From Hormiphora californensis (taxonomy: Eukaryota > Animalia > Ctenophora), in NCBI GenBank assembly GCA_020137815.1, contig CM035359.1:1178001-1242000 (forward strand): a DNA stretch of 64,000 nucleotides. The letters are read 5' to 3'. The translations under genes were made by a program, and so were the position numbers. Under the pieces are notes generated by a model. The model worked only from the letters and a program-made list of their open reading frames with translations. It searched no databases and was not told where the DNA came from. Below are positions 2,505-31,300 of this stretch, one piece after another (the stretch's first letter is position 1; the number at the start of each line of letters is the position of its first letter).

Positions 2505-4126
2505 TTTGGAGACACTTAGCACACTGATTTGAGAGAGAGAGAGGGCACCCTACAGGAGTCAAATGTTAATTATTCTGGTCAATTAGGCCCAATTGTGCTC
2601 AATTAGAGCACTTTTTCCACAAATAAGAGCTTTTAAAAGATACTCATGCCCTGTTCAAGTGAATCAGGGTATCAAAATCAGTGGGTGAGTGTCTCCAAAT
2701 GAACTTATAGAGATTACAGGGAAAAGTGGTAATTATTTTGGTCAATTGGACCCAATTAGAGCACTTTCTCGATCTCTGAGAGCCTAGAAAAATCCAGTAA
2801 ACAGGGGGTTATCCAAGTCCGGGGTTTGTGCCCTCATACACTTCATACGTTTTCAGGGGAAGTTGTAATTTCGTCAATTAACCCCATTAAAACCTTAGAA
2901 TCACTTTAAAACCCCCTGGGTCTTTTAAAAGTGCTCATGGGGTTTAGGCCTTTAAATTCGGTTTTTATTTTTTGCTTTATATCAATTTTTCAAATTTTTC
3001 TTTTTTATCACCTGCCCTTTCCCCCAGTTCTGTGAAGCAGAAAGGGGGGAAGGTCCCCCCCCCCTTTTTTGGTACTTGCCCCCACCTGAATTATAAATTT
3101 AAAAAAGGGGAGGGAAGAGATCATTTTTTTTACTTTTTAAAAATCCAATTTTTTAAAAACCCGTCATGTGATCAGATCACGTGTACTTTGGAAAACCCCG
3201 AAAATTCCCCCGGCGAAAAAAACCGCTTTTTTACTTATGTGGCATAGGCTCCCAGACGGTTGGGGCCCGGAACCCCAACGACCCGGGGGAAACGGGAGAA
3301 AATGCGATTTTGGATGACTCTGAGACGTTTTTTTTTGAGTTTCTATCTCAATTTTAGTGATGGCGGATAAAACCGTACCCCCCCCCCAAAAATGAAATAC
3401 CTAGAATAAGTTCCCCCGCGGGTTTAGATCACTGCAAACTTGGATCAAAACCCTTTTCCCCCCCCGGGTTTTTTTACAAGCATGGTGAAACCTTGTTAAT
3501 CCCACCCACAAAAAAAATTTGGGGAACTCCATCATTTGCACCCCGTGTGCCCTTTTGCAACCCACCCAAATTTCTTCTTTTGGGCCAAAAGGTTTCTTCT
3601 TTGGCGCCCCATTAGAACCTTTGGGGGGCAAAGAAACCCCTTTTTCCCCCCGAAAAGGGTTGCGCCCCTTCTTAAAAGGGAGAAAATCAAATTCCCCTGT
3701 GGGGGGTTGGGGGGTAAGGGGGCAAAGACAAAACCCCAAATTGCCCCCCAAATTTTTAAAAAAAGAATTTTTTTTCAAGAAAGGAGGGAAATTTTTTTTT
3801 AAATACCGAATTGTGGGAAAAACAAAATCCCTTTTTTAAAAATGTTTAACCCAAAACCCCGGGAAAAATGGTGTGGGGGGAAGGGGAAAAAATTAGAAAA
3901 TTAAGGGGGGCAAACCCTGATAAGGTCATACCTAAAAATAAAAAAATCCCCTTAAACTGACTTTATCTAACTAAAAACACCCCACCTTCTCCAAAAAAAT
4001 TAAAAAACTTTTGGTCTTTCTTCCTTTCCCTTCTCCTTCTGGCGGCCCAATCATTTCCCCCCCCTATAATACTCATTGTACTCACCGTTTATCCTCATCA
4101 CCCCCTATAATACTCATTGTACTCAC

Positions 4127-28340: not shown

Positions 28341-31300
28341 TTAGAACTTGAATTCTTTATATTTCTTGCTCTTGTTGGCCTCCTGCTGTTCCCGCATCTT
28401 TCGCTTCTGAAAAAGGTGGGAAAAGGAAGGTCAGCGATGTCAATGATACACATAATCAAGGAGTTTAATTGATTAATTGTTGTAACAAAAAAGTAAGTAC
28501 CGTGAAACAAAAGTATAAGAGAAGCTAAGTAGAAGACTGTTGTTAGGAAAAAAGCAAAAGCACCAACCCACACATACCTGGTATGTACAACAATTATAGA
28601 ACACACACACACGATAGAAATGTAGAGCTATTTACGTGACATTATATGCTGGCTAATTGAAGCGATTTATAATAGCAATCAAAATTTGCATTTGAATTTA
28701 TCTATTCATCGATCACTGAGTTGTATCTCACCAGAATATTGAATCAAAATCAGACCCCGATTTACCGGGCAATTAACCCTTTTCTCCGAAGCATCCCCCC
28801 CCCCCCCGGTAAATCGGGGTCCGACTGTATATATCACGATTGTTATAGTAATTAAATAACTTTAATTGGCTAATTAATTTATTGTTATTACCTTCTGACT
28901 AGCTTCTCCACTGGGTGCTGTAGTCGAAGAGGGAACACCACTTGGCGGTACTGCACCATTTTTAATAGCCGCAGATACATCGTACACGTGCTGAGTACCC
29001 ATGAGACCATCTCAAATTCCCCTTGGGGGGGAAAAGAGAAAAGAGAGAGAAGAGGGGAGAGAGAGAGAGAGAGAGAGAGAGAGGGGGGAGAGGGGAGTTT
29101 TGAGGGGGAGAGAGAGAGAGAGAGAGGGGGAAGGGGAGAGGGGAGAAAAAGAGAGGAAAAATGGGGGGGGGGGAAAAGAGAGGAGACAGACAGAGACAGA
29201 CAGAGACAGAAAGGGAGTTCCAGAAGTCGGACCGCCACCTCGACTTGTCGCTGTGGCAGGACTTGGTAAAGTTGTGGCGGTGCCTCTGATGACGCCAGAC
29301 CTGTATCCAGATCTTTCGATTTTCTGAGCTCGATAATATCAGGGGTTTCTAGGCCAGCTGAAACGGACTGCAGACCACTCTGGAGTATCCAGCCTAGATA
29401 TATATTTGGGTTGTTAACAATCTTTTATTTTCTCTCCCTAGTTAAAGTATTAATCTTTCTTTTTCTCTCCGTGGTTAAAGTAACGATCTCACTACATACC
29501 CTTCTGCGGGTGTCTCCAGACCAGAATCCATTTCTGGTTGTGGTTGTGGTGCCTTTGCTTCTTCATCCACTCGTTCATCCTCGCTTTCACTTTCACTTTC
29601 GCTTTCAAGGGCTCCCCACATTGCCTTATCAGTGGGCTCATCTGCATCGTCCTATAATAGAATAGAAAGATTGTTAGAGATCTGTATCGTCCTAGAATAG
29701 AAAGATTGTTAGAGATCAGCATCGTCCTAGAATAAAATAGAAAGATTGTTAGAGATCTGCTTGCCTAGCTAGACTGTGCGCCCCGCCCGAAATATGTAAA
29801 GGAGGGTTAGAACATAAGATCTGTATCGTCCTAGAATAGGAAGATTGTTAGAGATCTGCATCGTCCTAAGAGGATTGTTAGAGTGTTGAGCATACGTTGT
29901 ACCAGTCAAATTGGGCTCAGCTGGCACCGTCCGTGGTGGATGAAGGTGGTTTGCAGTTGAGAGATGCAGCCAAACTCCGGAAAACGTGAGGAACACCGCA
30001 GCTCTCAACTGCAAACCACCCAGTTGAGTATTATACCCCACTATTTCCCCATTTCAACACATTGATATTTAATTGCTGATGAGGTTCATCAGGATCTGCA
30101 GCTACTCTCACCTGTTTATACCCCTCATAATCTGTTCCAAAGACATCTCCATAGAGAGGTTGGCCGTGCTCATTAACTGGAGGTTTACCCCAACCACCGG
30201 GATGATACCCAAAGGAGCAATCAGGTGGAATGGGAGCATTGAGTCCCGGGATTCGGAGGTTAGGGTAGGAAGGAGGTGGTCCGTATCTCTGCATGGCAAT
30301 CAACCAGGGTGGAGGAATCTGGGGGAGATATGGTGTTATGATATGGTGGGACGGAGGGAGAGAGGGAGGGAAGGGGGAGGGATGAGGGATTGAGGGAGGA
30401 GGAGAATGATTTTCCCCGGGCCCCCTTCCCTCCCTTTTCCCCTCTTTCCCGGGCCCTCGGCTTTAGGGGGGTTTAAAAGGGGGGGGCCCCTTCGATTTGT
30501 TTGTACCTTGTCAGTATTTGTTGGCATTCCAAGAGCGGTTTTTAGATCGTCAGTCAGCCTGCCCGGTTTCTTTTCTTTTAGTTTGGTCTCGAACTCTTTA
30601 CCTTCGTAATACAAATCACCGTGAATGGTCACCTTGGGTTTGGTCTGGTACCTGGAAGAGGGAGAGAGAGGGTTGGTAATGGGAGGTTCACAGGATTCTA
30701 GGAAGCTCACTGCACTTACCGGTTGGTATCGGAAACCAGTTAAAATTTAAAAGAATTTCATGATAATTTCATGATAATTTCAGAGAAATTTATTTTTTAG
30801 GTTATATTTTCAAGCGATCTGGCTTCCGTTACGACATTCGCAGCGAACAATATTCGTCTTCTTTCTTTCCTCTCGTTCCAATCGTAGTTGTTGTCTCAGT
30901 AGCTTACAGCGGAAAGATAATGGAGGTTTAGTACTTTTTGGGAGTGTTTGGATAGGCCAAAGTATATTTAAAAAGAGATATTATATCTCAGATATTATAT
31001 CTCAGATAGTATCTCAAATATTATTTTGATCAGCTGGGTGAAAAGAGAGAACTAAAACACTTCCTGTGGGGTGTGCAAGCTATGATAAATTGCTGAGAAC
31101 CAACTGTATACAGCCTGGGGGAATCACAAGGGTGTTAGAACTCTGATCATTGAGAAAATATCACGACGCACCCCCGTCCCCCAAACTCTCACTCTACTCT
31201 CACTCTACTCTCACTCCTTAAAACTCTCACTCCCCCTCCATCTCCAATCCCCAACATATCCCTCTCAAGAAATCTGTTTGTATGGAGGCTAGCTGCTTGC

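Follow-up and report, generated by a model that had tools for sequence, protein, structure and literature searches.

What places tandem repeats on splice junctions, and what becomes of the surplus splice sites that such repeats create? This question is raised by a stretch of 64,000 nucleotides from the ctenophore Hormiphora californensis (GenBank assembly GCA_020137815.1, contig CM035359.1, positions 1,178,001 to 1,242,000 of the forward strand; hereafter the window, numbered from its first base), in which the genes Dvl, CLK and SF3B2 carry five tandem arrays whose units straddle a splice site. The original prediction, made from the sequence, had attributed them either to a mutational process that favours splice junctions or to selective retention of decoy sites. 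Our analysis favours another answer, which we consider likely: the arrays are 'mirage' minisatellites, short tandem duplications across the exon-intron boundary that persist as tolerated turnover. They belong to a known class of repeats, here with a member in a new phylum, Ctenophora, and are probably harmless or neutral.

Five arrays at modelled splice junctions

Tandem Repeats Finder (TRF) was run over the window and gave 126 rows. The exon models, on the minus strand, were built from reading frame and homology, and the splice junctions are thus modelled ones. The set comprised 64 junctions (31 acceptors and 33 donors), without the garbled SF3B2 exon-10 acceptor and without the lipoxygenase-like and TRP-like genes. 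Arrays were present at five of the 64 (two donors and three acceptors), and all five contain the GT or AG of the modelled junction (Table 1), so that the straddling of splice sites in the three genes was confirmed. In a blind probe over the 64 junctions, two of its five settings recovered exactly these five and the remaining three recovered four of the five; none of the settings returned a further junction. Units or spacings range from 32 to 106 bp, and the exon content varies from 4 to about 25 bases across the five arrays. No common motif beyond the splice site itself was found among the five units. Three of the arrays lie in Dvl, at 3 of its 9 junctions.

Both large Dvl arrays agree with what had been predicted, namely 35 bp × 14 at the acceptor at 5343 and 32 bp × ~37 at the donor at 8236. 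In the acceptor array the AG is intact in all 13 upstream copies, and the junction reads CAG|GT. The 32-bp array has a higher-order structure, in which a block of 9–10 units occurs three times and the variant string DDECDCCF recurs thrice.

The three smaller arrays were predicted correctly only in part. The doubling of 41 bp at the Dvl donor at 4127 is found in the assembly, but read contigs imply a longer unit. At the CLK acceptor at 16342, three AG-bearing copies were found as claimed, but their spacings (46 and 106 bp) do not make a regular array, and there is a decayed fourth copy without AG at 16565. The SF3B2 acceptor at 29651, described as ~35 bp × 5–6, has five clear copies and a decayed one, but in two blocks, with spacings of 40, 35, 104 and 35 bp; its unit carries a CTAAC branch-point-like motif. 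The arrays had also been said to expand only into the intron. Copies beyond the exon-adjacent one count as intron by definition, and the statement, though true, is therefore no separate evidence of bias.

Apart from these arrays, a 12-bp unit × 2.2 at 24263–24288 doubles the AG at the acceptor of CLK exon 2 and contains no exon bases. Splicing to the upstream AG would insert four residues in frame; its score is weak (1.5 vs 4.9).

Comparison with known boundary-spanning repeats

The comparisons made here draw on passages of the cited papers. Mirages have been described in amphioxus, in Adh3 and the globin genes BflGb6 and BflGb9 (PMC3087553) and in PGBD5 and troponin C (PMC3902484). Normal splicing has been reported for them and for human F7 (PMC3087553, PMC3902484, PMC1557585). 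Concerted turnover of units was described for the amphioxus mirages, and the origin of the class was called unclear in 2010 (PMC3087553). The likeness to our arrays lies in boundary copies standing in tandem at donors and acceptors, units of 10–160 bp, many copies that keep AG or GT, copy number that differs between haplotypes, several arrays per gene or region, and concerted turnover. In the window the unit spans the modelled exon-intron boundary, 57 decoys keep AG or GT, and copy number varies at the Dvl acceptor. The amphioxus repeats differ in belonging to another phylum and in that their normal splicing was reported from reverse transcription PCR, whereas here we infer it; somatic instability was reported there for Adh3.

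Human F7 offers a matching build. Its seventh intron (IVS7) holds a 37-bp unit in 5–9 copies, made of the last 4 bp of exon 7 and 33 bp of intron, and only the first donor is used (PMC1557585). The Dvl exon-1 array likewise consists of 4 exon bases and the intron start, with identical pseudo-donors. Other human variable number tandem repeats that span a boundary are those of 6-16, CBS IVS13, LAMIN B2 and PDGF intron 4 (PMC1557585). Copy number is polymorphic in the human repeats, and here at one site at least. Whereas the human repeats named here are scattered and all at donors, three of our five are at acceptors, and a single window has 5 of its 64 junctions affected.

Duplication of AGGT as a route to new introns had been put forward as well. 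In the intron-gain model of Rogers (duplication of an AG/GT proto-splice site, cited in PMC3087553), the CAG|GT of the Dvl acceptor could serve as acceptor and donor. However, the other four junctions are not AG|GT, the arrays flank existing introns, and no new intron was seen; the model fits the Dvl acceptor only. In open-access literature, searched as listings and abstracts, we found no ctenophore mirage and no genome-wide test of enrichment, and the passages covered of the Hormiphora genome paper (PMC8527503, supplements excluded) do not mention such arrays. The ctenophore case widens the range of the mirage class.

How could such arrays arise and persist? Ordinary slippage or microhomology repair would give a short duplication, which would then grow by unequal exchange, as the threefold DDECDCCF block suggests; such exchange usually shows itself as a recurring variant block in an array. 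Purging would remove duplications that lie entirely within exons while those crossing a boundary survive, and because of this the survivors would pile up at exon edges. The boundary-crossing ones would be tolerated because the proximal site, chosen through exon definition or scanning, would be used and mis-spliced messages would be removed by nonsense-mediated decay. A mild extra junction bias, of about 2- to 3-fold, may add to this pile-up. Ordinary turnover is supported by the richness of the window in local duplications, as seen in the 126 TRF rows in 64 kb.

Enrichment at junctions

The window was picked for this trait, the masks for transposable elements and garbled zones were drawn by eye, and several cut-offs were tried. 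In a position-based null, the outer units of local duplications cover 2.1–2.9% of non-exonic positions, which gives 1.3–1.8 expected junctions; P is 0.011–0.027 for the five observed and 0.06–0.11 for the four observed with the 8+8 probe. An array-based null gave five against 1.3–1.9 expected (P 0.003–0.031), and four against 1.05–1.25 for units of at least 30 bp. The most careful of the nulls was survivor-aware, with arrays collapsed to one unit and placements wholly inside exons forbidden. Among the 28 genic non-coding array loci of the window, 5 lay at junctions against 2.73 expected under this null (P 0.12). The other 23 hold no junction, and these non-straddling repeats were not significantly near one (8/23 vs 5.3 expected, P 0.14). 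Overall, the excess across nulls is 1.8–4-fold, with P of 0.003–0.12. A junction excess of about 2- to 3-fold, from one window chosen for this trait, is thus suggested, not established; if it vanishes genome-wide, ordinary minisatellite turnover is what is left.

Several results weigh against tolerated turnover. With units of at least 20 bp, a cruder array null gave 5 vs 1.26 expected (P 0.003) and the survivor-aware null 5/8 vs 1.74 (P 0.014), and for units of at least 30 bp the latter gave 5/7 vs 1.60 (P 0.008). All three genic non-coding arrays with at least five copies of a unit of at least 20 bp are at junctions; this placement of long arrays hints at growth or retention there, not seeding. 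Some pseudo-sites of human 6-16 and CBS are used (PMC1557585). Scoring matrices, built from no more than the 28 acceptors and 31 donors of the remaining 59 junctions, showed no decay of the decoys: the true site was equalled by 11 of 13 decoys at the Dvl acceptor and by 22 of 37 at the Dvl donor, and all four SF3B2 decoys outscored theirs. Finally, among the RNA or RNA-like runs compared over 4040–7300, X20 gave no record and X8 three, none over an array junction, where absent cover proves nothing.

One alternative is mutation that favours splice junctions. Pausing coupled to transcription or to the spliceosome, R-loops, or breaks where exons end could seed or grow duplications several-fold more often at junctions than elsewhere, with the arrays themselves neutral. 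The excess of 2.9–4-fold for units of at least 20 bp agrees with this, as do the placement at junctions of the two genic arrays with the most copies (37 and 14) and the crowding of three arrays in Dvl. However, all of this comes from a single window chosen post hoc and masked by eye, P loses significance over all loci and with the 8+8 probe, the non-straddling repeats show no significant nearness to junctions, and there is no sequence pointer to a specific mechanism. The excess suggested in the window is small, and we regard such a process as possible though unlikely. A broader form of it, in which ctenophores, lancelets and other marine invertebrates share a mutational bias that brings junction duplications several-fold above the survivor-aware null, is doubtful. 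If it were true, polymorphic ladders of identical decoys would be found at about 8% of junctions, and mirages would be a general animal phenomenon of transcription- or splicing-coupled origin, with a natural allelic series for 3′ splice-site choice.

Decoy sites

The 57 decoys are those with an intact AG or GT, without the CLK copy that lacks AG and the SF3B2 copy at 29766, whose placement is off by 2 bases. None of the 57 would give an in-frame, stop-free insert, and the decoys would therefore yield no useful isoforms. The SF3B2 protein of the ctenophore Bolinopsis microptera is colinear across the proximal acceptor. The proposal that the functional site is the copy nearest the exon body agrees with both results, since this copy is the one that gives an intact frame.

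Selection might still keep the decoys, either because unproductive splicing followed by decay adjusts expression or, in the case of the Dvl acceptor, because they allow stepwise re-splicing. CLK and SF3B2 are splicing factors, and the decoys keep AG or GT with scores like those of true sites. At the Dvl acceptor alone, a join between exon 2 and a decoy would restore a predicted donor, CAG|GTAC. It scores 7.5, where the real donor of exon 2 scores 8.2, and GTAC is also the start of 4 of the 31 other donors; stepwise (recursive) re-splicing is thus a possibility there. On the other hand, an allele with a single acceptor copy exists at this site, young and homogenised arrays are expected to hold intact decoys anyway, AG|GT is found at just 1 of 5 junctions, and no RNA evidence of decoy use was seen in the runs over 4040–7300, in which no contig covers an array junction. 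Selective retention is disfavoured by this allele and by the lack of open decoys, and we consider it very unlikely.

Support in public read contigs

Contigs from four public runs were compared over 4040–7300: two DNA runs, X1 (sample S1) and X5 (sample S2, from another study), and the RNA or RNA-like runs X8 and X20. X1 is possibly the assembly's own sample, and X5 is a different one. This check covers the three Dvl sites, with the 32-bp array reached in no more than its ~7 distal units, and contigs cannot fix the copy numbers 14 and 37.

The interior of the 35-bp array is covered by contigs in X1 and X5, and the X5 record 5759–5893 matches the end of the array with 0 differences. A 245-base X1 contig runs over 5230–5361, jumps to 5834 with 23 other letters, and then jumps from 5859 to 6829. 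This contig is an allele in which the unit occurs once and the neighbouring miniature inverted-repeat transposable element (MITE) is missing; both alleles thus exist, and the Dvl acceptor array is polymorphic. The single-copy allele retains TTAA, which is also found in the exon part of the unit; this would fit an origin by slippage or microhomology repair, though a contraction would look similar. Copy-number variation between haplotypes was seen at this one of the three Dvl sites, and the other two were uninformative. Divergence between haplotypes is high: on 4162–4324, one X1 contig has 0 differences and another has 10. Heterozygotes with 1 vs 14 identical acceptors offer a ready test of 3′ splice-site choice, because plain scanning for the first AG would land on a decoy.

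Units of the 32-bp array are present in X1 and X5 contigs over 7058–7300, and the X5 record 6803–7087 has 0 differences. At the 4127 site, contigs of both runs contain a go-back joint from 4147 to 4043 with 7 inserted letters. This implies that the duplication across the junction exists and that its unit, as reconstructed from contigs, is ~70 bp and not the 41 bp of the assembly, whose copy sits at the edge of a garbled-looking zone. A hidden third copy of this unit in 3850–4045 was rejected, as its score (24.0) was matched or exceeded by 217 of 500 shuffles.

The arrays are most unlikely to be largely artefacts of noisy long-read assembly: garbled-looking zones (~2830–4045, 26230–27300 and 50640–54000), a 1.1-kb stretch that occurs twice (74% identity, 60 gap openings), a one-base frame break in SF3B2 exon 9 relative to Bolinopsis and the discrepant unit at 4127 would agree with this, but units of both large Dvl arrays and the 4127 duplication occur in the contigs of two different samples, each from its own study, and the exact match at the array end comes from X5, which is not the same sample as X1. 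The expected recurrence of the arrays in reads was thus seen, in contigs, for units of both large Dvl arrays, with a different unit length at 4127. Junction arrays of this kind can mislead annotation and read alignment.

Gene models

The genes modelled on the minus strand are Dvl exons 1–5 (8317–4127), CLK with 12 exons (26226–11616), SF3B2 with 13 exons from 41229, and a coiled-coil gene. Reading is open through Dvl exons 1–5, CLK exons 3–12 and SF3B2 as far as exon 9. Dvl exon 3 is the second half of the DIX domain (Pfam DIX, E 4e-8; DVL2 chains matched too), and exon 1 is the DIX start (DIX 2–22, E 0.009). A protein search with the Dvl DIX exon found no relatives. The Dvl intron 4364–4468 is confirmed by RNA, as one X8 contig joins 4363 to 4469, with CT..AC ends. 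The rest of Dvl past exon 5 was not found in the window, where the garbled-looking zone 2830–4045 lies. The CLK exon was identified by a CLK2 match (E 1.5e-8); exons 2 and 3 join out of frame in the model, and an exon may be missing. SF3B2 was identified by matches to PSP-domain proteins, and its nearest named relative is the Bolinopsis microptera protein XP_063689527.1, which clusters with one of the two closest SF3B2 matches.

Table 1. Junction-spanning arrays and associated features of the window
Feature	Position	Strand	Description
Dvl exon-5 donor duplication	4060..4141, boundary 4126/4127	-	TRF 4060-4141; assembly 41 bp × 2.0; contigs ~70-bp unit
Dvl exon-3 acceptor array	5332..5816	-	TRF 5332-5816; 35 bp × 13.9; unit 23 intron + 12 exon bases
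Dvl exon-1 donor array	7058..8239	-	TRF 7058-8239; 32 bp × 37.3; unit 4 exon + 28 intron bases
CLK acceptor copies	16321..16580	-	TRF 16321-16393; 16342 (true), 16388, 16494, decayed 16565
SF3B2 acceptor copies	29640..29890	-	TRF 29640-29760; 29651 (true), 29691, 29726, 29830, 29865; decayed ~29764 (by eye)
MITE-like element with long inverted ends, beside acceptor array	5868..6828		self-BLAST 6469-6828 vs 6227-5868, 95%; missing from single-copy allele (X1 joint 5859 to 6829)
Dvl exon 5	4127..4363	-	exon model; RNA contig X8 joins 4363 to 4469
Dvl exon 3	5219..5343	-	exon model; Pfam DIX, DVL2 chains
Dvl exon 2	6887..6938	-	exon model
Dvl exon 1	8236..8317	-	exon model; DIX 2-22
CLK exon with LAMMER-like motif	16222..16342	-	exon model; CLK2 match
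SF3B2 exon next after PSP-domain exon	29500..29651	-	exon model; Bolinopsis protein comparison

The SF3B2 N-terminal exon (39264–40852) is long, of low complexity and rich in E, A, Q and R, with coding repeats of 39 bp × 10.5, and the Bolinopsis protein has a charged N-terminal extension likewise. SF3B2 exon 9, with its frame break, is at 29239–29393. An SF3B2 intron holds an element like a long interspersed nuclear element at 33560–39150 (endonuclease- and reverse-transcriptase-like frames, by eye), interrupted at ~35390–35980.

Beyond these genes, a lipoxygenase-like exon was found at 57638–57829 on the minus strand (Pfam, E 1e-4), with a possible further exon at 60466–60600 on the same strand. 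An ankyrin/TRP-like channel gene lies between them on the plus strand (58080–60309); its channel identity is an Atlas lead only, under 0.9, and a protein search with its open reading frame found no relatives. It may thus be nested in an intron. Nested intronic genes have been reported in the Hormiphora genome, in the passages covered of PMC8527503.

Other repeats and assembly quality

CLK exons 1–2 are present twice in the region 23300–27545, and the two copies (26221–27305 vs 23347–24364) form the 74% duplication mentioned above. A MITE at 24364–26012 is found in only one of them. The doubling is probably spurious, caused by a noisy second haplotype. Homopolymer- or G-rich stretches that look garbled and of low quality are seen at 29013–29235 and 30340–30500 as well as at 2830–4045 and 50640–54000.

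A palindromic MITE-like element of ~110 bp occurs five times (11150–11270, 11390–11510, 19610–19715, 31825–31935 and 41975–42085), and its motif also turned up in metagenomes, at the loci L001 and L002. Scanning metagenomes for a 29-base MITE motif gave two contigs of 1.2–1.4 kb with one 12-bp repeat, too little for statistics. Retroelement-like blocks with AG microsatellites occupy 19700–24020 and 44300–50400. A 530-bp direct repeat (44427–44955 vs 49098–49625) is 94% identical, and a 30-bp unit is repeated six times at 20813–20991. TTTG microsatellites at 32474–32569 and 43234–43278 start 8–9 bases past two donors, and a TC microsatellite at 32741–33004 occupies an entire SF3B2 intron up to the acceptor.

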